Shown here piece after piece: positions 52,356 to 63,715 of a stretch of 64,000 nt of DNA. How positions within the stretch are numbered: the first letter of the stretch is position 1; every line of letters begins with the position of its first letter. The notes beneath the pieces are model-generated. The model was not told the DNA's origin and did no database searches. It was given only the letters and a program-made list of their open reading frames with translations. The stretch covers positions 352,001 to 416,000 of the forward strand of contig CAVYRH010000019.1 of the NCBI GenBank assembly GCA_963770835.1, in the 5' to 3' direction. Made by a program: the position numbers and the translations under genes. This DNA is from an uncultured Pseudomonadota bacterium. GTDB lineage: Bacteria > Oederibacteriota > Muellerivitia > Muellerivitales > Muellerivitaceae.

Positions 52356-53093
52356 TTAATCCACCTTAAGACCGTTGCTTTGGATGAACTTGAAAACCTT
52401 TTCAAATACGGTCTGCTTATCGTAATCCATGGTCACGACGTGGTCCGAACGGTCCAGGTAAAGTAGGTGCTTGGAACCTGACCCTAGGGCTTGATAGACC
52501 AAATCACCGTTGGGCGGGGGCACCATGGAGTCCTTCCGGCCCTGGATGACTAGGGCGGGGGCAGTGATCCGGGGCAGTTCCCCCCGCACCACATCCATGA
52601 ATTTCTTCAGATCATAAAGGCTTTTAGTCATGACGTAAGGGTAAGTGAGATGGGGTGAAGAAGTTGGATCGAGAATGCCGCCCGTCAAACTGGTCGTCCA
52701 CCATTGGAGGAATCGGAAAAAGGCGATGCCGTTGAATCGAAAATCAAAAATGCGGACGGGAGCCGCCATGGGAATCACGCCCGCAACTGGGGCATCGGCA
52801 GCCAGGTGAAGGGCTTGATCGGCGCCCATGGACAACCCCCCTACGAAAACTTCGGAACAGCTTTGTTTGAGGTGATCGTAAGCCTCACGGGCGCTTTCCG
52901 CCCAATCCTGCCAGTTGGTTTTCGCCAAATCTCTTGGATTTGTGTCATGGCCCTTGAGCCAAGGCCCCAAGGTGGAAATGCCCCTTTCCGACAGGTAATT
53001 CCCCAGCGGTTCGACTTCCCCGGGGGTCCCGGTTAATCCGTGAAGGAGCAGGATGCCCGTATTCCCTTTTTTTGATTCAAACCCAATTTTCAT
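52356..53093 (-). CDS. Carboxylesterase (alpha/beta hydrolase)
   Basis: LLLHGLTG, GLSMG nucleophile elbow, D in GRKDSMV, H in SDHVV. Confidence 0.88.
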   Translation of the reverse strand: MKIGFESKKGNTGILLLHGLTGTPGEVEPLGNYLSERGISTLGPWLKGHDTNPRDLAKTNWQDWAESAREAYDHLKQSCSEVFVGGLSMGADQALHLAADAPVAGVIPMAAPVRIFDFRFNGIAFFRFLQWWTTSLTGGILDPTSSPHLTYPYVMTKSLYDLKKFMDVVRGELPRITAPALVIQGRKDSMVPPPNGDLVYQALGSGSKHLLYLDRSDHVVTMDYDKQTVFEKVFKFIQSNGLKVD

Positions 53094-53108: not shown

Positions 53109-53723
53109 TTAGCTTTTATGGTTTGCCGCGTCAAGTTGCTGGATTCGATGAAGTGTAAAAAGAATTTCATTATCCGTGGGCCTGTCCGTGGGATCTTTCC
53201 CGATGTACTTGAAACGGATAATCTTGTTCGAGTCGATGATGAGGGTTGTCGGCCGGGCGATATCTTTACCATCATGCCCATTCGGATGGCGGGCCCCATA
53301 GGCGTCGATGACCTGGAGATTCGGATCGGACAAAAGGGGAAAGGGAAAACGCCATTGTTGGTTGAAGTCCGCGGAGTCCTGGACGGAATCCGCGCTGACC
53401 GCCGCGACGGTGGCGTTCTGGGCGAGAAACTTGGGATAATCCTCTTTTAAACCGGCCAATTGCCCCTGACAGGCGCTGCACCAGGCGCCACGGTAAAGAA
53501 TAAGGACCAGGTACCAGCCAGGCTTCAAGTCCGCCTGCTTCACAAGATGGCCCGTGCTGTCCATCAGGGAAAAATCATAGGCTTTGTCCCCAGGAACAAG
53601 GCCCCCGGGTTTGGAGGTGGCCGGTTGGGACGATTGGACACAACCCTGGAACAAACTCACCGTTCCAACCAAACCAAGGGTTACTAATAGGAAGAGTGAA
53701 ATTCTAATTTTCCTCAGTGCCAC
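53109..53723 (-). CDS. Exported peroxiredoxin-like AhpC/TSA protein
   Basis: YRGAWCSAC, FPLLSDP, ARPTTLIID; N-terminal signal with a possible lipobox (FQG-C). Confidence 0.8.
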   Translation of the reverse strand: MALRKIRISLFLLVTLGLVGTVSLFQGCVQSSQPATSKPGGLVPGDKAYDFSLMDSTGHLVKQADLKPGWYLVLILYRGAWCSACQGQLAGLKEDYPKFLAQNATVAAVSADSVQDSADFNQQWRFPFPLLSDPNLQVIDAYGARHPNGHDGKDIARPTTLIIDSNKIIRFKYIGKDPTDRPTDNEILFTLHRIQQLDAANHKS

Positions 53724-53767: not shown

Positions 53768-53814
53768 ATAGTTTCCCAAAGGCGTTGACATTGTCAATTG
53801 CCATTCCCAATAAT
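53768..53814. promoter_or_regulatory. Back-to-back sigma70-type promoters around a TTGACA-T-TGTCAA palindrome
   Basis: Plus strand: TTGACA(53785)-N18-AATAAT. Minus strand: TTGACA(53797)-N18-AACTAT. Confidence 0.5.
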
Positions 53815-53840: not shown

Positions 53841-54137
53841 ATGAATTTTTTCCGCAAAAACCTGTTCCCCTTCACGGCCTTTGCCTTCGCGACCTTCCTT
53901 TCGGTCCTGGCGATCGAGGGTTTTCACCATCACGATGACGGCCTTGAGGGGCACGACGATTGTTCCATCTGTAGTTGGCAGGTCAACGGTTCCCAGGCTC
54001 CCTCGACTCCTGCTCCCCCTCTTTTATTTCAAGCGCTTTTATTATTCATCGCTCTTTTCATCTTTACGCCTTCCCCTCCTTCTACTTTCGTTTCTTTTTC
54101 GACTTCCGGTAGGGCCCCGCCGTCCATCCTCCTGTAA
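53841..54137 (+). CDS. DUF2946-like (CruR/CutF-type) leader peptide 1 with His cluster, CxxC and RAPP motif
   Basis: TAAGGAG RBS; hydrophobic N-terminus, EGFHHHDD...HDDCSIC, C-terminal SGRAPPSILL; upstream of a TonB-dependent receptor. Confidence 0.85.
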   Translation: MNFFRKNLFPFTAFAFATFLSVLAIEGFHHHDDGLEGHDDCSICSWQVNGSQAPSTPAPPLLFQALLLFIALFIFTPSPPSTFVSFSTSGRAPPSILL

Positions 54138-54309
54138 CGAATCTTCGGCTTCCAAAAGTTGGAGGCCGCGCTCGCTTTTCAGGGGGATTTTTCTTTGAGT
54201 TCCGCTCAATCGTAAAACTCCCATAACAACCAATCCATTTAGTTTTCGTTCCGGCGTCGGCCCGCATTCTGGATCGACCGGGCGAAATTCCAAACACCAG
54301 GGGAGAAGA

Positions 54310-56772
54310 ATGACCACTTATAACAAGATGCTTTTACTGTTGTTGGCGCTTTTCAGTTTTTGTACAACAAGAGCCTTGGCCACCGTCAATGGCGCCCTTT
54401 CGGGCACCGTTTTGGACGACAAGGGCGTGGCCGTAGCGAATGCTAAGGTGACAATCACGGGAAATGGCATTGAAAAGGATTTAACCTCTTCGGCTACGGG
54501 GACTTTCCAGGCTTTCCCGCTGACAATCGGGGATTATGTGGTGTCTGTTACCGCCGATGGATTTGTTCCTTATAAGTCCACGGTGACGGTCGCGGCAAGC
54601 AATACGCCCCTGGAAGTGCGCTTATCGCCGGGGGAAATGCAAATGAAGGTAACCGCCAAACGCAACGAAATCACCTCCGCTCCCGACAGCAGCCGGTCCC
54701 TGGACCAAAGCGATATTGAGCAGCTTCCCCAGGGCAACACTCAGGATATCCGCCATTTGTTATATGACACGACACCCGGTTTTTGGGAGGGGCCTTTTGG
54801 CCAGGTCTTTACCCGCGGCAACCACGCCAATTTGCAGTACCAGGTCGACGGCATTCAATTGCCTGACTCGGTGGGCGGTTCCTTCGGGGAGGCCTTTACC
54901 CCGGTCAATATTGACCATATGGAAATTTTAACGGGCGGCCTCCAGCCGGAATTCGGCAACCGTTTGGCCGGCGTTATTAATATCGTCACAAAATCCGGCA
55001 GCACCGAACAAGGCGGGGAGATCGGGACCAGTTTCGGGTCTTATAACCAGACCCAGTCCTACGCCACCTACGGCGGTGCGGATGTTTCGGGCGCCTGGCA
55101 TTACCTTCTCTCGGTCAACGCCTCGTCGACCGGAAGGGGCTTGGACACGCCGGCGCCGGCGGACATCAACGCCGACCAGAACGGCGGAAGCGAGGATGTG
55201 GTCCACGACCAGGAATATAGTTCTGATGAATTCATGAAATTGGATTGGCAGGCCGACAACTTCAATAAATTCATCCTGTCCGCCTTCGTCGAGAACAAAT
55301 TCAACCAGATACCGGATTACGACAGTTCCTTCGACCCCGGCGGCCCTAATTTTGCCTATTTTAACGGAAATTTAGATCCCCTCGGGAACGGCCCCTTTAA
55401 TTACGTTCCTTCCACCACCAACGATACGCAGGCCGAAGCCAACAGGTATGTGGAGTTCTCATGGGTCCACACCTTTGACGACGAATCCTTCATTCAGATA
55501 TCGCCGTATTTCAAAGAGTCCAACCTGACCTTTAACGGCGATCCGGCGAATGACTTGGCTTTCGCTGGAAACCCCGCAAACAATTCAATCGCGGCCAATT
55601 GGCTCAACAATGACGGCGTCACCCTCCTCGATTCTTCCTATTCACAGGACCGCACCAGCGACAATTACGGGACCCAGGTGGATTACACCTGGCGGCCGGA
55701 TTCCAACAACCTGATCAAGGCGGGGACCCAGCTTCTTTTTACCCAGTCCTCCGGCCCGGTTTCCGTTCTTGAGGTTTCCAACACTGGATCCGGTCCGGTG
55801 ACATTACCCCCCGGCATCGACACTTCCATGGATCAGGGCTTTGAAGAAGGCGTTTATGTCCAGGACGAGCTGACTTTGGCCAAGTGGCTTGTCTTGAGCG
55901 GCGGCGTGCGGTTTGACGCCATTCAATACACGTTGAATATCGGGGGCGCCAGCGGCCAGGTTCAAGATGACGACAGCAATTGGGGGCCACGGATCGGATT
56001 GAGCATCCTGGCTTCGGACGACACTAAATTCCACTTGTTCTACGGCAAACAATTCATGCCGGCTCCCCCGGAAGACCTGAAGGATACTTTCGTTGCCTTA
56101 GGTGTGGGGCAAGCGCTGGTCCCTTATAACATCAAGGCCGAAAAGGACGATTACTTCGAGGCGGGTTGGGCCCAACAGATGGGCACACACCTTTTCACCC
56201 TGAACGGCTACTTGAAGCTAGCCACCAACATGCTGGACGAGTCCCAGCTGTTGAATACCGGCATTGACCAGCCCTTCAATTACGCGCAGGGTTATGCCCA
56301 AGGCATCGAAGTCTCCTTACGCGGCAAATTGGATAAGGATTGGTCTGACTTCGCCAACTATACTTATAGCCTCGCCGAAGGGGAGGGGATCAGCGGGGGG
56401 GATTTCGCCTTCACGCAGGCATTGCTCCCGCCTCAAGGGATCTATCAACCCCTGGACCATGCCGAAATTCATACGGTTAATTTCGGGCTGACCTATAACC
56501 CGGGGGACCTTTGGATCACGGGGACGGGTTATTTCGGCGGCGGCCTGAGCTCCGGGCCGGGCCTCGCCGAGAGGCTGCCGAGCCACTTCACGTATGACGC
56601 CACCATCGGTTACGCCTTTAAGAAAGGCACCGGCCTCAACGGCTTGAAGGCCAGCTTGGATGTGATCAACATCGGCAATTATCCCTATGTCATTTTTATC
56701 AATGACGGCTACAACGGCAATCATTATGAAAATGGCCGGGAATTCGTCTTCCGATTGGCCGAGCAAATCTAG
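54310..56772 (+). CDS. TonB-dependent receptor with N-terminal carboxypeptidase-regulatory-like domain
   Basis: Signal peptide, LSGTVLDDKGVAVANAKV, plug (RGNH...YQVDGI...GGLQPEFGNRLAGVINIVTKSG), barrel ending GREFVFRL. Confidence 0.92.
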   Translation: MTTYNKMLLLLLALFSFCTTRALATVNGALSGTVLDDKGVAVANAKVTITGNGIEKDLTSSATGTFQAFPLTIGDYVVSVTADGFVPYKSTVTVAASNTPLEVRLSPGEMQMKVTAKRNEITSAPDSSRSLDQSDIEQLPQGNTQDIRHLLYDTTPGFWEGPFGQVFTRGNHANLQYQVDGIQLPDSVGGSFGEAFTPVNIDHMEILTGGLQPEFGNRLAGVINIVTKSGSTEQGGEIGTSFGSYNQTQSYATYGGADVSGAWHYLLSVNASSTGRGLDTPAPADINADQNGGSEDVVHDQEYSSDEFMKLDWQADNFNKFILSAFVENKFNQIPDYDSSFDPGGPNFAYFNGNLDPLGNGPFNYVPSTTNDTQAEANRYVEFSWVHTFDDESFIQISPYFKESNLTFNGDPANDLAFAGNPANNSIAANWLNNDGVTLLDSSYSQDRTSDNYGTQVDYTWRPDSNNLIKAGTQLLFTQSSGPVSVLEVSNTGSGPVTLPPGIDTSMDQGFEEGVYVQDELTLAKWLVLSGGVRFDAIQYTLNIGGASGQVQDDDSNWGPRIGLSILASDDTKFHLFYGKQFMPAPPEDLKDTFVALGVGQALVPYNIKAEKDDYFEAGWAQQMGTHLFTLNGYLKLATNMLDESQLLNTGIDQPFNYAQGYAQGIEVSLRGKLDKDWSDFANYTYSLAEGEGISGGDFAFTQALLPPQGIYQPLDHAEIHTVNFGLTYNPGDLWITGTGYFGGGLSSGPGLAERLPSHFTYDATIGYAFKKGTGLNGLKASLDVINIGNYPYVIFINDGYNGNHYENGREFVFRLAEQI

Positions 56773-56783
56773 TAGAAAGGTGG

Positions 56784-56858
56784 GGCGCCGGAGGGTTTAA
56801 TCCCCCTACGGCGTCTTAACCCCAAAGGGTTCACGCCCGGACCCTTTAGGGTTAAGAC
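56784..56858. repeat. Two adjacent stem-loops between the receptor and exbB
   Basis: GGCGCCGGAGGG/CCCTACGGCGTC and a 20-bp stem GTCTTAACCCCAAAGGGTTC/GGACCCTTTAGGGTTAAGAC. Confidence 0.7.
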
Positions 56859-56887
56859 ACACTCAATTTTCAAAAAAGGAAAAAGAA

Positions 56888-57523
56888 ATGAACGGTTTAT
56901 GGGACGGTTTTAAATTTATTTTCCGGGGCGGGTTCATGATGATCCCCCTCCTGGCGTCTTCCTTGATCGCCTTGACGGTGATCGTCGACCGCTGGAAGGC
57001 GTATCACCAGCGGTATAAAACGCCCCCGGACTTCATCAACGGCGTTTTGGAAAAAGCGCGGGCGGGCAACCTCCCCGAGGCCATCCAAGCCTGTCAAGGG
57101 AAGGACATCCCCGTGGCCGCGGTCCTGAAGGCGGGGCTGGAGCACTTCAAGAATCCCACTGCGGAAATGGAGATCGCCATGAAGAATGAGGGCGAGAGCT
57201 GGGTGCCGGTATTGGAAAAACGGATACACGTTTTGGACACGACCATCACTATCGCGCCCCTGATGGGGCTTCTGGGAACCATTATCGGCATGATGGGTTC
57301 CTTTAAAGTGCTTACTCAAAGCGGTGTGGATGATCCCTATTCCATCACCGGAGGCATCGCCGAGGCCCTGATTGCCACGGCCACCGGTCTTGTCATCGCC
57401 CTGGTTTGCGTCATCGCCCACAACTACTTCAATACCCTCGTCAAGAATTCCATTTACGAGATGGAATCCGCCGCCTCGCGCCTGTTGGAAGCCCGGTTGG
57501 CTTCCGAAAGGAAGAAGGGCTGA
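56888..57523 (+). CDS. exbB: ExbB/MotA/TolQ proton channel
   Basis: GGFMMIPL, APLMGLLGTIIGM, GGIAEALIATATGL. Confidence 0.92.
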   Translation: MNGLWDGFKFIFRGGFMMIPLLASSLIALTVIVDRWKAYHQRYKTPPDFINGVLEKARAGNLPEAIQACQGKDIPVAAVLKAGLEHFKNPTAEMEIAMKNEGESWVPVLEKRIHVLDTTITIAPLMGLLGTIIGMMGSFKVLTQSGVDDPYSITGGIAEALIATATGLVIALVCVIAHNYFNTLVKNSIYEMESAASRLLEARLASERKKG

Positions 57524-57933
57524 TGCAAATCCGTCAAAGGCCCTTTAAGCGGGTCCGCATCGAAATCATCCCCATGATCGACGTTATCTTCTTTTTGCTG
57601 GTGTTCTTTATGGTAACGTCACTGGCCATGACCCGTATCAACAGCATCAAGGTGGTGCTGCCCAAGACGTCGGGTGCGGCTGAAACCATGAAGCAAAATA
57701 TCATCCTCACCATCAAGAAGGACGGTTCCATGCTGGTCAACAAAACGCCTGTCACCCTCGATACCCTGGGAAGCCGGCTGGTTTACGAGATGCAAGCCGA
57801 TCCACAAGGCGTAGTCATTGTGAACGCGGATGAGGACGCCGGTTATGGCGTGGTGGTGGCGGCCATGGCCAAGGCCAAGGAAGCCGGAGTGCGCAAGTTC
57901 GCCCTGGCCGCCGAAGCCGAAAAGGGAAAGTGA
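57523..57933 (+). CDS. exbD: ExbD/TolR biopolymer transporter
   Basis: IEIIPMIDVIFFLLVFFMV, VNADEDAGYG; ATG at 57523 overlaps the exbB stop. Confidence 0.92.
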   Translation: MQIRQRPFKRVRIEIIPMIDVIFFLLVFFMVTSLAMTRINSIKVVLPKTSGAAETMKQNIILTIKKDGSMLVNKTPVTLDTLGSRLVYEMQADPQGVVIVNADEDAGYGVVVAAMAKAKEAGVRKFALAAEAEKGK

Positions 57934-58535
57934 CCTTGTCGCCCTTTTACACGAACCCGGCCGAGGAACAAAAACGCCTTTATCGATCGGCGGGGATCGC
58001 TTTGGGATTGGAGCTGCTTTTCTTCCTAGCCCTTGGGATAAGCCATCTGCCGCTTTTCCATAACCCCTTTGATTCGGCCCAATATTTGGACGCCCAAATC
58101 CTGCAGTTACCTGAAAACTCCCATTTAACGGGGGCCCAGGCCACGACACCCGACGACGAAATCGTCTTTAACCCCCACCACAAGGTTCCCAAGAAGGTAA
58201 TCAAGAAAACTCCGCCTCCCCCGGCCCCAGAGCAAAACAAGGTTGAGGCCAGCCCCAGTTTGGGGCCCACCCATGGGCCCGTGGCGCTTTATTCTCCGTC
58301 ACCGGTCATCCCCAACTACCTAAGGGACCAGAATTTGAAAACCAGCGTGGTGATTGAGTTCCTCATCACGGCCCAGGGGCAGATGACACCCCGGCTGTTG
58401 GAATCCAGCGGCAACAACGAGTTGGATTCCATCGCCTTAAACACGGTTGCTAAATGGCAGTTCAAACCCGCGGCCCAGGACAACGTGCCGATCGACTCTA
58501 AAACCCGGCTCCGTATCCTTTTTGAGGTCTATTAA
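57930..58535 (+). CDS. tonB: TonB family energy transducer
   Basis: N-terminal TM, Pro/Lys-rich linker, ESSGNNELDSIALNTVAKWQFKPA. Confidence 0.88.
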   Translation: MTLSPFYTNPAEEQKRLYRSAGIALGLELLFFLALGISHLPLFHNPFDSAQYLDAQILQLPENSHLTGAQATTPDDEIVFNPHHKVPKKVIKKTPPPPAPEQNKVEASPSLGPTHGPVALYSPSPVIPNYLRDQNLKTSVVIEFLITAQGQMTPRLLESSGNNELDSIALNTVAKWQFKPAAQDNVPIDSKTRLRILFEVY

Positions 58536-58536
58536 G

Positions 58537-58875
58537 ATGCCTTTATACTCTTCGAATTCTTCCGGCAAAAAAATTGGGACATCCGATCCCAAGGATTGGA
58601 TGCTTCTCTTCGTCTTTCCCGTGGCGGTTTTTTTCATCCTGGCTGGCTCAGCCGAGGGATTTATCCATCATCACCATCACAGCCCCACCGAGGATTCGGA
58701 TTGTGCCTATTGCGGATTCCATAACGCCGTCACCCAGTCGGACTACACGGTCAATCTTCCTCAGATAGTTCCCTTCCTTCCCTTGGTTCTCATCTTCGCC
58801 TTCCCCTTCCTGCCCTTTCATTCTTCCCGTTTTTTCACCCATTCCGGCCTGTCCCCGCCGGCCCTTTTCCAATAA
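58537..58875 (+). CDS. DUF2946-like leader peptide 2 with His cluster, CxxC and LSPP variant motif
   Basis: EGFIHHHHH...DCAYC...SGLSPPALFQ aligns with leader 1; start at 58537 or at 58600 (AAGGA RBS). Confidence 0.8.
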   Translation: MPLYSSNSSGKKIGTSDPKDWMLLFVFPVAVFFILAGSAEGFIHHHHHSPTEDSDCAYCGFHNAVTQSDYTVNLPQIVPFLPLVLIFAFPFLPFHSSRFFTHSGLSPPALFQ

Positions 58876-59035
58876 AGGGAAGACGCGCCGAAAGAGTGGA
58901 ATTTATTCCAGCCCTGATCCTTTGAAGTACCGCCCAGGGTCCCATTCCTGAAAACCTTCGCCCATCCCGTTTTCCCGCAGGCCAATCGCCAATTCCGACA
59001 ACCTTTACATCTCTCAATTTAAGGAAGGAGCAAAA

Positions 59036-59725
59036 ATGAAAGTTCTTGAAGTCAAAAACTTGAAAAAGTCTTACCTAACACCCGAGGGTAATACTCACAG
59101 GGTCGTTGATATCGCCCATTTCTCCCTGGATTCGGGAGACCAAATGGCGCTGGCCGGGGAGAGTGGATCGGGCAAAACGACCTTCTTGCACCTCATTTCG
59201 GGTGTGCTAAAGCCCGACAGCGGCGAAATCAGCCTTGATGGAAAAAGGATGGACCTGCTTCCGGAAGCCGGACGGGATAGCCTGCGGTCCAGCCTGCTGG
59301 GTTATGTCTTTCAAAATTTCAACCTCCTGCAGGGAATGACTTCCCTGGAGAATGTTGAACTGGCCATGCGGTTCGGCATGGGAGTGGATAAGGAAAGGGC
59401 CGTTTCGCTTTTAAACCGGATGGGCCTTTCGGAGAGGCTCCACCACTATCCCCGCCAGCTTTCCATGGGGCAGCAGCAGCGGGTGGCCGTGGCACGGGCC
59501 CTGGCCAACCGCCCCAAATTGGTCTTAGCCGATGAGCCCACAGCCCACCTGGACCATGTCCGGGGCAAGGAAGCCGTCACCTTGATGCGGGAAGTCTGCC
59601 GGGAATTCGGCGCCGCCTTGTTGGTGGTAAGCCATGACCGGGAAGTATTGTCAAACTTCAAGCAGGTTGAGCGCTTTGACCGGCTGAACCGTGCGCTTCA
59701 CGCGCGCCAGGAGGCAAAATCATGA
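59036..59725 (+). CDS. ABC transporter ATP-binding protein (LolD/MacB-type)
   Basis: GESGSGKT, LSMGQQQRVAVARAL, LADEPT, VSHD. Confidence 0.93.
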   Translation: MKVLEVKNLKKSYLTPEGNTHRVVDIAHFSLDSGDQMALAGESGSGKTTFLHLISGVLKPDSGEISLDGKRMDLLPEAGRDSLRSSLLGYVFQNFNLLQGMTSLENVELAMRFGMGVDKERAVSLLNRMGLSERLHHYPRQLSMGQQQRVAVARALANRPKLVLADEPTAHLDHVRGKEAVTLMREVCREFGAALLVVSHDREVLSNFKQVERFDRLNRALHARQEAKS

Positions 59726-60978
59726 ATACACTGATTTTTTTGGCCCGGCACAGCTTGAGGCGCCACGCGGTCTCCACTTTGGTGACCGCCCTGTCGGCGG
59801 CCCTGGCGGTGGGCCTGACCTTGGCCGTCTTTGGCCTGGCCGCCCAAACCCGGGCCGCCTTCATGGGCGGGGCCGGTGGTTTTGACGCCGTCTTGGGCGC
59901 CAGAGGAAGCCAGCTCCAGCTGGTTTTGAACGCCGTTTTCCAGCTGGAAACCTCGCCGGGCAATATTCCCTGGAGCCTCTACGAGACGGTGAAAAACGAC
60001 CCCCGGGTCGCCGAGGCGGTGCCTTACGCCGTCGGGGACAATTACTACGGCTTCCGGATATTGGGGACAACCCTCGCGGTTCGGGATGAGCTCCGGAATT
60101 CCTCCGGCAAGCCCCTGGAACTGGAAGAGGGGGGGCGCTGGTTCAACGATGAGGACCGGGAAGCGGTGGTTGGATCGATCACGGCCCAGAGAAGCGGCCT
60201 CCAGGTCGGCAGCTCTTTCCGGCCCTACCACGGCCTGGCTTTCGACCCCAGCATGCAGCACGAGGAGGTCTACCAGGTGGTGGGCATTCTCAAGCCGTCC
60301 AATACGCCGATCGACCGGGTCCTCTTCATTCCCCTGGAGGGCTTCTACCGGATCAAGGGCCATGTTCTCCGGGGATCGGGTAAGGATTATGTACCGAAGG
60401 AAAACCAGCCCATTCCCGACGAGGACAAGGAGCTCAGCTCCGTCCTGCTGAAGCTCAAAAGCCCCCAGGCGGGTTTCAACATGGATTACACCATCAACAA
60501 ACAGGGCAAGGTGGCTACCTTGGCCTGGCCCATCGGGCGGGTTATGGCCGACCTTTTCAACCGGCTGGGTTGGATGAACCGAATCCTGGTCCTAGTGGCC
60601 TACTTGGTCATGGTCGTGGCCGCCTGCTCGATCCTGGCCGCCCTTCACAACACCATGCGGGAGAGGCGCAGGGAATTTGCCATCCTGCGGGCCTTGGGCG
60701 CGAAACGGCGCACCGTGTTCGCCTCGGTGGTGACCGAAGCCGCCTGCATCGCCGCCTTGGGCGCCTTGGGGGGCTATTTGGTTTACGGTCTTTTGTTTTT
60801 CCTGGCGGCGGGGCTGGTCCGGGCCCAGACAGGGGTGGTCGTGGACCTCTTCTTTTTCCATCCGGCCCTTATCGGCGTGCCCATCGGCATGACGGTTTTA
60901 GGCGCCTTAGCCGGTGTCTTGCCGGCTTATCAAGCCTATTCCACTGACGTGGCCGGGAATTTGGAACCCCATTCGTAA
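59722..60978 (+). CDS. ABC transporter permease (FtsX/MacB-type, ZrgC-like)
   Basis: GARGSQLQLVLNAVF, GDNYYGFRILGT, PYHG...HEE, ERRREFAILRALGA. Confidence 0.9.
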   Translation: MNTLIFLARHSLRRHAVSTLVTALSAALAVGLTLAVFGLAAQTRAAFMGGAGGFDAVLGARGSQLQLVLNAVFQLETSPGNIPWSLYETVKNDPRVAEAVPYAVGDNYYGFRILGTTLAVRDELRNSSGKPLELEEGGRWFNDEDREAVVGSITAQRSGLQVGSSFRPYHGLAFDPSMQHEEVYQVVGILKPSNTPIDRVLFIPLEGFYRIKGHVLRGSGKDYVPKENQPIPDEDKELSSVLLKLKSPQAGFNMDYTINKQGKVATLAWPIGRVMADLFNRLGWMNRILVLVAYLVMVVAACSILAALHNTMRERRREFAILRALGAKRRTVFASVVTEAACIAALGALGGYLVYGLLFFLAAGLVRAQTGVVVDLFFFHPALIGVPIGMTVLGALAGVLPAYQAYSTDVAGNLEPHS

Positions 60979-60990
60979 GGAGGAATCGAC

Positions 60991-61482
60991 ATGAGACTTT
61001 CATATTTGGTTTTCCTGGCTTGGATATTTTTATTCACCGGTCCCGCGATACGGGGTTATGGCGAAACTCCCCCAGACGGGAAAGCGCCGGTAACGGAATC
61101 CGCCAAGCCCGGTTTTGAACCCCAGGCCCCCCACGGGGGCCTGCTGGTGGACGCAGGGGATGATTTCGCCCACGTGGAAATGGTCTTTGATTCCGCGGAG
61201 GGGACACTATCGGCCTACATGCTGGACGGAGAGGCCGAAGAAGCAGTCCCCCTTAAGCAACCTGTCATTTTGGTTCGTTTAATGAAACCGGCTCGGACCT
61301 TAAAACTGAAGGCGGTGGTCAGCCCCTTAAGCGGGGAAAAACCCGGGGCCACCTCTTCTTATGCCTTGACAGACCCTTCGCTGAAGGGCCTTTCACAGTT
61401 GAAGGGCGTATTGGTATCGGTGGATTTTAACGGCTCGGTCTTTAAAAACCTTGCCTTCCAATTTCCGCAAAAAAAGGAATAG
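60991..61482 (+). CDS. Exported protein with PHGG...H motif (putative metal chaperone)
   Basis: AGGAGG RBS, signal peptide, APHGGLLVDAGDDFAHVEMV. Confidence 0.7.
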   Translation: MRLSYLVFLAWIFLFTGPAIRGYGETPPDGKAPVTESAKPGFEPQAPHGGLLVDAGDDFAHVEMVFDSAEGTLSAYMLDGEAEEAVPLKQPVILVRLMKPARTLKLKAVVSPLSGEKPGATSSYALTDPSLKGLSQLKGVLVSVDFNGSVFKNLAFQFPQKKE

Positions 61483-61490
61483 GATCACGA

Positions 61491-62324
61491 ATGAAAACCG
61501 GCTTTAACAGGATGATGAAAAAGTCCAAAGAGATGATGAAAAAGTCCAAAGAATGGACTTTTTCATATCTATGTCGCGAACCACCCCTTAAAAAACAGGG
61601 GGTTAAAAACGGTTCGCTCCTAGCCCGTGGCTGTAGACAGGGTGTAAAAACACTTTTTCAGCACCCTGTTAAAAAAGGAATGGTTTACGGGGCTGTCCTT
61701 GGTTTCTTTACCCTGGCCGCCGGAGCCCCGATTTTCGGCCAGAACTTCTGGAAATACCAGGCACCGGCCACCGATGTCCCGGCCGCCGAAGGATCCGGGG
61801 TGGCCAATGACGCCAAGCTCCAGGCCCTCAGCCAGATCAGGGATCCCGTCGTCCAAATCAACCCGGCAGACCTGGAGGGAAAACCCCTCGTGGATTTCAC
61901 CCGCTTGGCCTGTTTCAATTACGACTACCCGGATGAGGACGGGGGCGCGTTGGCCCCTAAAAAATCCAAAAGGAAAAAACCGGGAATCCCTGTTTCGGTT
62001 TCGGCCTTGAATGGGACAACCTTGGCCGTTCCCGGCTTCATGATCCCAATGGACCAGGATGCGGACGGGGACACCTGCACTTATTTCATCCTGGCCCGCA
62101 ACCAGATGACCTGCTGTTTCGGCGTGCCTCCGGGCCTGAACGAGTGGGTGAGCGTGCGGATGGAGAAGGGTAAAACCGCCAAGCTGGATATGGACCGCCC
62201 AGTTGTGGTGGTGGGGACCCTGGAAGTCGGGGAGATTTTCGACCCCGATTCGGGCTGGAGTTTCTACCGGATGAGGGGCGAGAAGGTCATCGTCGCAGGG
62301 AAAAAGAAAGTTTGGTTCCAATGA
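61491..62324 (+). CDS. DUF3299 protein 1 (N-terminus extended by an in-frame MITE)
   Basis: LNG...VPGFMIPMD...FILARNQMTCCFGVPPGLNEWV. Confidence 0.8.
   Translation: MKTGFNRMMKKSKEMMKKSKEWTFSYLCREPPLKKQGVKNGSLLARGCRQGVKTLFQHPVKKGMVYGAVLGFFTLAAGAPIFGQNFWKYQAPATDVPAAEGSGVANDAKLQALSQIRDPVVQINPADLEGKPLVDFTRLACFNYDYPDEDGGALAPKKSKRKKPGIPVSVSALNGTTLAVPGFMIPMDQDADGDTCTYFILARNQMTCCFGVPPGLNEWVSVRMEKGKTAKLDMDRPVVVVGTLEVGEIFDPDSGWSFYRMRGEKVIVAGKKKVWFQ
61508..61668. mobile_element. MITE-like element, copy 2 (inverted; 140 bp plus a 21-bp tandem duplication)
   Basis: Perfect TTAA direct repeats at 61504-61507 and 61669-61672; the reverse complement aligns end to end with 33714-33853. Confidence 0.88.
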
Positions 62325-62333
62325 GGGGGAGTC

Positions 62334-62966
62334 ATGAAAAAACAGCCTATTAAACTGAAATGGTCGGTGTTGCTGGTATCCCTTTTCCTGGCGGCCCTTC
62401 CCTTCCTGAACCTTACAGCCTTCGGACAAGGGGCCGCGCCCAGCGCCAATCCGGTGGTTCCCTACGCCACGGCCGTCCCGGCACCCATCGACCTCAATTC
62501 GGCGCCCATCACGGTTTACCCACTTGTGGACGACCATTCGCTGGTGACTTGGGACACCCTCTCCCATTTCGACTATGACTCCCCCAGCATCGACGAGGAG
62601 ATTGACTCGAAACTGCGCCTCAAGAAGAAAAAATACCCCATCCCCGGCTTCATCAAGCTGCTAAATGGCGCCCCCGTCGCAGTAGTGGGCTTCATGATCC
62701 CCCTAGACACGAACGAGGCGGGGGACAAGACGACCTCCTTCATCCTGGCCCGCAGTCAGGCCACTTGTTGCTACGGCATCACTCCCAAGATGAATGAGTG
62801 GATGTTCGTGCAAATGAAAAAGGGGAAACAGGCCGAGACGATGATGGACATGCCCGTGACGGCTTTCGGCACCCTGGCCGTGGGCGAGGAAAAAAAGTCC
62901 GATACGGGCTGGACCCTTTACCGGATGGTTTCGGATAAGGTCACCGTTCCCAAAGTCAATTGGTAA
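62334..62966 (+). CDS. DUF3299 protein 2
   Basis: Signal peptide; LNGAPVAVVGFMIPLD...FILARSQATCCYG...NEW. Confidence 0.8.
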   Translation: MKKQPIKLKWSVLLVSLFLAALPFLNLTAFGQGAAPSANPVVPYATAVPAPIDLNSAPITVYPLVDDHSLVTWDTLSHFDYDSPSIDEEIDSKLRLKKKKYPIPGFIKLLNGAPVAVVGFMIPLDTNEAGDKTTSFILARSQATCCYGITPKMNEWMFVQMKKGKQAETMMDMPVTAFGTLAVGEEKKSDTGWTLYRMVSDKVTVPKVNW

Positions 62967-63715
62967 GGATGAAGGAGGCTTCGATGGGTGGCATACACGG
63001 TCCAACGGTTAAGAAAAGCGGTAACGGGGAAAACCCTTCCGCTTCCCGCATCCCAACGCAGGATTTGAAATACTGGGCCATGATGGTCTTGAGCCTCTTC
63101 TGGTTCGTGTTCCTGACCTATTACCTGCTCAAGGCCAACAGCCGCCCCTCCGTCCTTCAATGGTGGCAAACGCAAAGCAAGGCGGAAGAAACGGTTCCAT
63201 CGGCGCCCCCCAAGGCAGACCCCGTTTCCGGCATTCCCTCAAAACCAGCCTTGAACATCCCCTACCCGAAAGAGGGAGATTATTACCGGCTCAATTTCGA
63301 CGTCCTGTCCGGGTTCCCCGCGGGGACGCCGGACATTTCGAATCCGGCGGTTGACCCCCGGAAGAGGGCCAAAATGGCCAGCTTCAATATCCCCGGCCCG
63401 GTGAAGGTCTTGAATGGGCAAAAAATATCCGTTGTTGGTTTCATGATCCCCATGACCATGGACAAGGAAAGTGTTTATAGTTTTATCCTGGCTCAAAGCC
63501 GGATGACCTGCTGTTACGGGATGGTTCCCCAACTCAACCAATGGATTTACGTCACCATGGACCCGGGGAAGCCAACGTCACAACTGATGGACGTTCCCAT
63601 CACCGTTTTTGGGACCCTGAGCGTGGGCATGAAGATCGACAAGGACAGCATGGGTTGGTGCCTTTACCGCATGACCTCCGGCAAGGTGGATATGCCCAAA
63701 CAATCCTGGTTTTAG
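62960..63715 (+). CDS. DUF3299 protein 3 (N-terminal TM anchor)
   Basis: LNGQKISVVGFMIPM...FILAQSRMTCCYG...NQW; start probably 62984, after AAGGAGG. Confidence 0.8.
   Translation: MVRMKEASMGGIHGPTVKKSGNGENPSASRIPTQDLKYWAMMVLSLFWFVFLTYYLLKANSRPSVLQWWQTQSKAEETVPSAPPKADPVSGIPSKPALNIPYPKEGDYYRLNFDVLSGFPAGTPDISNPAVDPRKRAKMASFNIPGPVKVLNGQKISVVGFMIPMTMDKESVYSFILAQSRMTCCYGMVPQLNQWIYVTMDPGKPTSQLMDVPITVFGTLSVGMKIDKDSMGWCLYRMTSGKVDMPKQSWF

Follow-up and report, generated by a model that had tools for sequence, protein, structure and literature searches.

The best described counterpart of the system reported here is CruR (Bp2923) of Bordetella pertussis, in which an export signal and a CxxC precede a C-terminal RAPP, the distance from CxxC to motif being 45 residues and conserved to one or two residues, and which is followed by a 162-nucleotide (nt) spacer and a TonB receptor gene; a C>G bubble in the 3' half of CruR is used with Rho (PMC9426467; what is said here of this and the other cited sources refers to the accessible parts of those texts). 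We have analyzed a 64,000-nt stretch of contig CAVYRH010000019.1 (the window), in which two open reading frames (ORFs) of similar design, leader 1 (53841..54137) and leader 2 (58537..58875), stand before a TonB-dependent receptor (TBDR) module and before an ABC-DUF3299 module. We think it rather probable that these are two His/CxxC leaders in series, each a likely CruR-like cis switch that is on when a metal, probably zinc, is scarce. To our knowledge, metal-sensing arrest leaders have so far been shown for copper only, and as first genes only.

The window leaders share with CruR the export signal, the CxxC about 45 residues before the C-terminal motif, a long spacer (172 and 160 nt), the C>G bubble in the 3' half and, in the case of leader 1, the receptor gene downstream. 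Unlike CruR, they have a His cluster before the CxxC, a second hydrophobic segment and zinc-type neighbours, a second copy lies inside the operon and carries LSPP, and their Pfam scores fall below the cut-off. DUF2946 genes are described as 'systematically' first in their operons (PMC9426467). Such genes are widespread before TonB receptors (among PMC9426467, PMC9973294, bioRxiv 072470, PMC6103462, PMC12914433 and others) and are not all copper-specific (PMC9973294); one of them heads a Zur-activated zinc efflux operon (among bioRxiv 072470, PMC6103462, PMC12914433, PMC4176598 and others). CutF of Rhodobacter capsulatus is likewise a short exported upstream ORF with a Cys/His site and a Pro-rich end, and its stem-loop, which hides the Shine-Dalgarno (SD) sequence, resembles that of the porin-type paralogues described below (PMC9973294, bioRxiv 2025.02.05.636593). 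CutF stalls when copper-bound and turns on a detoxifying oxidase (same sources), whereas the opposite polarity is expected here because the genes are importers. A C-terminal R[AGS]PP is also shared with ApcA, ApdA, ApdP, SecM and uA_LPPP, and small RAPP/RGPP ORFs are enriched before TonB receptors (PMC12992588, PMC10987492); ApcA, ApdA, ApdP and SecM monitor protein export, and LSPP is not among their motifs in the accessible part of PMC12992588. The second module shares its MacB-type permease, ATPase and DUF3299 with Vibrio ZrgABCDE and Pseudomonas PA4063-4066 (PMC9817125, PMC9820375), zrg operons being zinc-starvation genes (PMC9817125). Unlike these it has no recognisable ZrgA, contains three DUF3299 copies, is placed behind a TonB module, and no Zur box was found for it. 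New here would be the metal context, the serial use and the motif, with a working mode like that of CruR.

Anatomy and conservation of the leaders

The window belongs to a genome of 4.58 Mb that is 96% complete (G000), and its proteins were scanned against Pfam. All features of the operon lie on the plus strand. Leader 1 (98 residues) consists of a hydrophobic segment (residues 9-25), EGFHHH, C41xxC44 (53961-53972), a second hydrophobic segment (60-76), SGRAPP (RAPP at 54111-54122), four residues and the stop, with 46 residues between CxxC and RAPP. Leader 2 (112 residues) begins with a variable extension of 21 residues, after which the same order returns: a hydrophobic segment (22-38), EGFIHHHHH, C56xxC59 (58702-58713), a second hydrophobic segment (77-93), SGLSPP (LSPP at 58849-58860), four residues and the stop, with 45 residues between CxxC and LSPP. 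The common design of two ORFs of about 100 residues, on which the original prediction had been built, is confirmed, although the two share just 32% identity over 91 residues. On a hydropathy scale the N-terminal segment, read as an export signal or transmembrane segment, reaches 2.0 in leader 1 and 2.5 in leader 2 over 17 residues, and a leader structure model (pTM 0.35) has a helix at residues 2-27.

The pattern HH..CxxC-(43-47)-xxPP-(0-8)-stop has four matches in the genome and none in any of four triplet-shuffled genomes, and is therefore not due to chance. The matches are both leaders, a third paralogue and one incidental match in a PerR-like protein. The third paralogue (G000:C26:877573-877863; L001:13574-13864, minus strand) is a RAPP leader with its own promoter and precedes a porin-ZnuA-ZnuB unit; the znuB-like gene behind it appears frameshift-split in the G000 assembly. 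A further exported ORF of the same genome (117 residues, Cys-rich; G000:C26:396413-396766, L002:6414-6767), which ends in RAPLSLRI, has no Pfam match and precedes genes for an outer-membrane factor, an adaptor and an ACR_tran efflux protein, is possibly a CutF-like leader of another type.

Kinship of both leaders with DUF2946 (Pfam PF11162, cut-off 23.7 bits), as first proposed, is supported. DUF2946 is the best Pfam family of leader 2 and the only one matched by leader 1, and 35 of the 48 aligned family members have it as best hit at E 0.1; the scores of both leaders lie under the cut-off. By sequence, the two leaders are divergent DUF2946/CruR relatives and not members by score. The CxxC is invariant in all 48 aligned leaders. 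Leader 1 alone matches 24/24 family genomes, and a profile of the 48 sequences finds leaders in 27/30 family genomes, 49/99 phylum genomes and 1211 representatives at E 0.001. Leader context was surveyed in a non-random sample of 62 loci, each retrieved by a leader or permease match; these hold 78 leaders, of which the 75 complete ones were counted and three partial ones omitted. The distance from CxxC to motif is 43-47 residues in 75/75 (range searched 38-52), and Arg heads the motif in 70/75, RSPP and RAPP among them. The next gene is the porin of a porin-ZnuA-ZnuB unit behind 35 leaders, a TBDR behind 20, the ABC ATPase of a DUF3299 module behind 13 and another gene behind seven. Conservation of motif, spacing and position across the clade is thereby borne out. 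A permease scan of the genome collection returned six close relatives only. Two loci are irregular: in G001 (L068:3353-7750) a broken leader remnant is followed by a 3.6-kb opposite-strand insertion and an intact leader before the porin unit, and G074 (L119:5909-7253) has two identical inverted leaders, each before a receptor module, which reflect a recent duplication or an assembly artefact.

Organization of the operon

Leader 1 is preceded by a sigma70-type promoter (TTGACA-18-AATAAT, 53785..53814) with 11/12 consensus positions, a site found also before most head leaders of the family and before the head leader of metagenome contig L123. Behind leader 1 and its 172-nt spacer, which with the leader tail occupies 54126..54309 (SD at about 54300-54305), follow genes for a TonB-dependent receptor (54310..56772), exbB (56888..57523), exbD (57523..57933) and tonB (TonB_C, 57930..58535), the starts of exbD and tonB overlapping the stop of the gene before. 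The receptor gave no OprC (TIGR01778) row and no PDB sequence match, each at E 1e-3. The ATG of leader 2 lies one base past the tonB stop, and since exbB, exbD and tonB overlap by stop/start codons, leader 2 would end a coupled chain. Its 160-nt spacer (58876..59035, SD at about 59025-59030) leads to an ABC ATPase of the LolD/MacB type (ABC_tran, 59036..59725; ZrgC-like), a MacB_PCD/FtsX-type permease (59722..60978; ZrgB-like by Pfam and by similarity to an Aeromonas zrg permease), an exported 163-residue PHGG protein (60991..61482) and three DUF3299 proteins (61491..62324, its true start probably further downstream; 62334..62966; 62969..63715), all three above the Pfam cut-off. The genes downstream of each leader and the spacers of 160-172 nt are thus as had been claimed.

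L123 carries all 12 genes in an identical order, and its tonB and leader 2 meet at a TAA-G-ATG junction as in the window. Between the window and L123, taken as a single pair and calculated by NG86, the ratio of nonsynonymous to synonymous substitution rates (dN/dS) is 0.12 for leader 1 and 0.25 for leader 2. The order of receptor module, leader and ABC module was seen again in L123 only; in the other GTDB genomes the ABC module comes first. Leaders are frequently 3-9 kb apart on the same strand, with modules shuffled between genomes. Promoterless internal leaders occur in six family genomes and two metagenome contigs, and an internal leader follows closely behind the previous gene in G000, G011, G014 (two loci), G021, G023 and G024 (two loci). 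G033, from another family, has two leaders in series by gene order. That the leaders are arranged in series, with no clear promoter between them, is supported by the synteny with L123 and by a promoter score of leader 2 within the background range: leader 1 heads the operon, and leader 2 appears from the sequence to be internal. The further claim that each module has its own leader holds for the window and L123, but the five closest ABC modules have none in front, so the second tier is optional. On contig L125 (101-890) an RGPP leader is followed immediately by an SSPP leader and then by a TonB receptor gene, the arrangement that would result if an ABC module had been lost from between two retained leaders. 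In G007 (L047:416-1195) and G022 (L049:6496-7248) a ZIP gene occupies the place of leader 2 between tonB and the ABC gene.

Proposed mechanism

By analogy with CruR, as long as no metal occupies the His/Cys cluster of leader 1, a ribosome would stall at the RAPP 46 residues further on. In that position it would block Rho termination and keep the tail helix open, so that the receptor, exbB, exbD and tonB are made; metal binding would free the stall, and expression would end in the spacer. Ribosomes that end tonB would re-initiate on leader 2, where the pause at LSPP would be weaker or tuned differently. The ABC-DUF3299 module would then need both conditions, since a second check is made at leader 2. 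That leader 1 acts as a cis switch seems to us very likely; that leader 2 is a working second switch we favour only slightly.

That a stall means on is suggested by the importer genes and by the porin-type paralogues, in which the leader tail pairs with the SD of the next gene. There the last leader codons and the SD are paired in 87.5% of cells, compared with 48-66% when the strands are slid, while RNAalifold did not return this tail:SD helix for the porin type. When the tail was masked in the model as by a stalled ribosome, the cost of opening the SD fell from a median of 11.1 to 5.5 kcal/mol, and the gain exceeded 1 kcal/mol in 31/34. Modelled in this way, the porin-type paralogues would be on when stalled. 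For long spacers Rho appears the better candidate, because the genome has a rho gene, C>G peaks lie in the leaders, and CruR has a similar bubble and a 162-nt spacer (PMC9426467). Ranked by C>G skew, the top 12 windows of the operon fall without exception within the 3' halves of the two leaders, at 54001..54100 (skew up to 0.71 per 80 nt) and 58751..58870 (up to 0.70), which are candidate rut stretches.

Several observations weigh against two working switches in series. The leaders match DUF2946 at E 4.7e-4 (21.3 bits, leader 1) and E 7.5e-3 (17.4 bits, leader 2), both below the cut-off. The LSPP of leader 2 may not stall, because changes of the Arg weaken or abolish arrest in ApcA, ApdA, ApdP and CruR. 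The five ABC modules without a leader (G002, G004, G007, G020, G022) have permeases 87-94% identical to that of the window. The promoter score of leader 2, 9.3, is close to the top of the background, and a weak promoter-like site with 9/12 consensus positions lies at 58522-58549. The C>G peaks are partly due to Phe, Leu, Pro and Ser codons, and at four-fold sites of the linkers G gives way to T and not to C (G 0.23 compared with 0.32-0.38 in genes, the kin not being independent). Modelled stalling gains more than 1 kcal/mol in only 9/16 TBDR-type and 8/13 ABC-type leaders; in the window it hardly changes the SD cost, from 5.8 to 5.6 and from 5.0 to 6.1 kcal/mol for leader 1 and from 5.3 to 4.8 and from 6.9 to 5.6 kcal/mol for leader 2. 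The three alternative helices of the TBDR type show little covariation. The metal is not settled, since NicO, CbiM and NikR lie behind a few leaders. Finally, the one RNA run examined matched generic ABC motifs only and not the locus. In runs X7, X8, X9 and X13, neither a related strain nor RNA reads over leader 2 turned up.

RNA folding and mode of output

The leaders may work and yet act through SD occlusion alone, of the SecM/CutF type or as an ermC-like relay (1:2, 2:3, 3:4), and not through Rho. We regard this as unlikely, though it deserves serious consideration. It draws on the clear tail:SD pairing of the porin-type paralogues and on the TBDR-type spacers, which have a conserved tail helix. 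In a consensus fold of nine sequences, examined together with constrained folds and pair counts, the partner of the tail in receptor-type leaders is a G-rich strand some 45 nt further on; in the window, 54126-54134 of leader 1 can pair with 54180-54188, and the latter alternatively with 54214-54222. This alternative 2:3 helix is 90% paired among TBDR-type spacers and a possible 3:4 pairing 87% paired, but the 3:4 pairing is not above shuffles (100/500). In the spacer of leader 2, 58877-58885 can pair with the leader tail or with 58968-58976, and across eight sequences 88% of the cells of the long-range helix are paired (30-67% when slid). For leader 2 of L123, modelled stalling lowers the cost of opening the SD from 13.1 to 6.1, as occlusion would predict, whereas leader 1 of the window gains no SD access. 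Both spacers are moreover near in length to that of CruR (162 nt), a Rho user (PMC9426467).

The LSPP motif of leader 2

Leader 1 has Arg at the first position of its motif; the LSPP of leader 2 is unique among the 75 complete leaders of the survey. A sequencing or assembly error was considered and rejected, as contigs of runs X1, X2 and X4 (two studies, X1 possibly being the source of the genome itself) cover these codons with 0 differing letters. Three orthologues with 62-72% identity and lengths that, with the window, span 109-112 residues retain HSGLSPPxLFQ, so that SGLSPP and the spacing of 45 are each found in 4/4 when the window is included. SGLSPP recurs with a spacing of 43-44 in three of 150 distant representatives that are 25-31% alike. 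The dN/dS of leader 2 differs by part: it is 0.03 in residues 22-65, which hold the hydrophobic, His and CxxC elements, 0.58 in the linker and 0.07 in the last 11 codons (102-112), and the Leu codon of LSPP shows a synonymous difference between the window and L123. A decaying pseudogene, suggested by the lone LSPP and the long end branch of leader 2, was rejected on the orthologues, the dN/dS and the synteny with L123: to judge by its sequence, leader 2 is not decaying. What appears to be a relic of the usual ABC-type leader start lies out of frame at 58581, 44 nt downstream of the present start, and, by comparison with the starts of other leaders, the same relic is apparent in L123; this suggests that leader 2 was re-wired to begin right behind tonB.

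The equivalence of the two leaders that the original prediction had assumed was not borne out, leader 2 being without the Arg that proved irreplaceable in ApcA, ApdA and ApdP, in which every Arg substitution weakened or abolished arrest; R139A likewise abolished the arrest of CruR, which has been demonstrated in vitro (PMC12992588). One may thus suppose that only leader 1 switches and that leader 2 serves to couple translation of the ABC module to that of tonB or is a small metal-binding membrane protein. Close relatives indeed run tonB directly into the ABC gene, the end branch of leader 2 is long (0.94, median 0.3), and all non-standard motifs in the GTDB genomes of the family (RDPP, KSPP, LSPP) are in internal leaders, as relaxed selection would give, although this distribution fits retuning or relaxation alike. 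We nevertheless hold this reading to be rather improbable: LSPP is kept in 4/4 and the last 11 residues are constrained while the linker drifts, the spacing of 45 would be needless for a free protein, the 160-nt spacer and its helix are kept, and an LPPP arrest motif that requires its Leu is known (PMC10987492).

Sensed metal and Zur

Zinc is the likeliest metal because of the neighbouring gene context. Apart from ZnuA (best NCBIfam row AztC, below cut-off), ZnuB and DUF3299, leader operons also include ZIP, MerC, a cation-efflux protein and ArsP/DUF1980 and, in rare cases, NicO, CbiM or NikR. Among 28 further proteins scanned, 24 of which had been picked from 56 clusters, none matched a copper family. 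Zinc-type rather than copper-type downstream genes, as first proposed, are thus supported. The sensed metal might instead be copper, nickel or cobalt: CruR and CutF sense copper through a CxxC, His-rich CutF-like clusters precede nickel/cobalt genes (PMC9973294), NicO, CbiM and NikR follow a few leaders, and the top fold rows of the PHGG model, at background Z, are CrdA and P19/Tp34-type metal binders. We consider this quite unlikely, since the zinc-type neighbours predominate, copper families and an OprC row are lacking in the scans described above, and the related zrg operons respond to zinc starvation.

The leaders had also been proposed to replace a Zur-type repressor. In G000, at 96% completeness, the Fur family consists of one Fur-like and one PerR-like gene only, the latter beside a peroxiredoxin. 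The Fur-like gene (G000:C2:129587-129947) is frameshift-split here and intact in relatives, and the split may be an assembly error. No conserved operator was found in 33 strong promoters, which share only the -35 and -10 boxes. Four Zur/Fur-type patterns, one of them taken from sites in PMC9817125 and PMC4176598, matched 1, 7, 4 and 5 of 59 upstream regions with up to three mismatches. With no Zur-like gene or operator found, replacement is plausible in G000. It is not general: next to leader operons, G013 and G011 encode additional Fur-family members (L078:3701-4135 and L059:1590-2018, respectively). With ZIP or MerC nearby, these are probably Zur by context, so that leaders do not always replace this repressor.

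Promoters

Scores were obtained with a weight matrix set after inspection of the head sites, and the fair test is therefore that of internal leaders against background only. Most head leaders score 10-11.5 and internal leaders 7.0-9.3; the background has a median of 7.5 and a 99th percentile of 9.5. That the window holds two adjacent operons, independent of each other in promoter and leader and without serial gating, is very improbable: the second leader does have its own strong TTGACA-type promoter in G004, G006, G008, G016 and G073, but 9-of-12 sites such as that at 58522-58549 were found four times where 4.4 were expected in 10.4 kb, this site is not kept in L123 (leader 2 score 8.3), and the start codon directly after the tonB stop is kept in both lineages, upstream of the would-be start of such a promoter.

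Relationship to zrg operons

The module qualifies as Zrg-like by its MacB-type permease, ZrgC-like ATPase and DUF3299, and its permease is 31% identical over 328 residues (E 6e-45) to that of the Aeromonas caviae zrg operon (NZ_AP026896.1). That operon begins with a 104-residue ORF (L128:1804-2118), followed by ZrgA, which has a hydrophobic start, His, a CxxC, 44 residues and RAPP, and matches DUF2946 at E 8.4e-4. Among 29 homologues, 23 keep CxxC-44-R[AG]PP around a variable linker and six are truncated or shifted; one passes the DUF2946 cut-off, and one has the UniRef label DUF2607, which our own scan did not reproduce. Neither G000 nor the Aeromonas record gave a DUF2607 (PF10795) match. 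The tail of the Aeromonas leader folds with the SD and start codon of zrgA (-25 kcal/mol). The profile of the family leaders gave no significant alignment with it (probability 0.6%); each reaches DUF2946 separately. The original prediction knew of no such leader on a Zrg-like module; as a novelty of this clade the arrangement was not borne out, since the Aeromonas zrg operon starts with one.

The Aeromonas leader occupies the position of Vibrio zrgD, which was compared by description only: a first gene of 101 residues with a single transmembrane segment, DUF2607, of unknown function and without growth effect when knocked out, and not described as a leader in the accessible parts of the papers (PMC9817125, PMC9820375). 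No such leader gene is annotated in the Pseudomonas and Phaeobacter zrg-like loci. Our literature search, mainly of papers outside subscription, found no publication that deals with arrest leaders for zinc import, with leaders in series or with a leader role of ZrgD.

The PHGG protein has no Pfam match and a predicted beta-sandwich fold (model pLDDT 79.8). Its best fold match, Helicobacter pylori CrdA, does not rise above background (Z 7.6, rmsd 3.1, 93 aligned), and ZrgA (PF10986) is absent among 50 fold rows; on this model the protein is not recognisably ZrgA. In an alignment, the PHGG proteins of the window clade have lost an N-terminal HEHH/HEHK motif that other members keep.

Other features of the locus

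An AhpC/TSA-like gene (53109-53723) and an alpha/beta-hydrolase gene (52356-53093) lie on the minus strand, divergent from the head leader, as they do in many relatives whichever module follows. The two divergent -35 boxes at the operon head together make a palindrome, TTGACA-T-TGTCAA (53785-53797), which was considered as an operator and rejected; we read it as back-to-back -35 boxes. All seven cases of it have an ahpC-like gene divergently upstream, yet other such arrangements are without the palindrome. Between 53600 and 64000 no Rfam family, riboswitches included, reached its gathering score, and intrinsic terminators were not in excess (17 found, 17.0 expected). About 10 kb past the window end is a reverse-transcriptase/maturase-like ORF with a YADD motif (G000:C19:425649-426944), presumably of the group II intron type. 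Contigs of the window organism are present in soil metagenomes.

Implications

In its boldest form, which we put forward tentatively, one mRNA would carry two serial zinc sensors, the second coupled to tonB and retuned by LSPP, giving a graded response without a repressor, and the first gene of gammaproteobacterial zrg operons would be a leader of the same kind, so far overlooked as such (Aeromonas by anatomy, with Vibrio zrgD/DUF2607 suspected). If the proposal as a whole is true, arrest leaders extend to zinc import and can be stacked as a two-step gate on one transcript. The natural Arg-less SGLSPP, found in one clade and in three distant proteins, would bear on the role of Arg in RAPP arrest. 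Through the leader of the Aeromonas zrg operon, the idea becomes accessible to tests in a cultured organism, and the orphan first zrg gene gains a suggested function.

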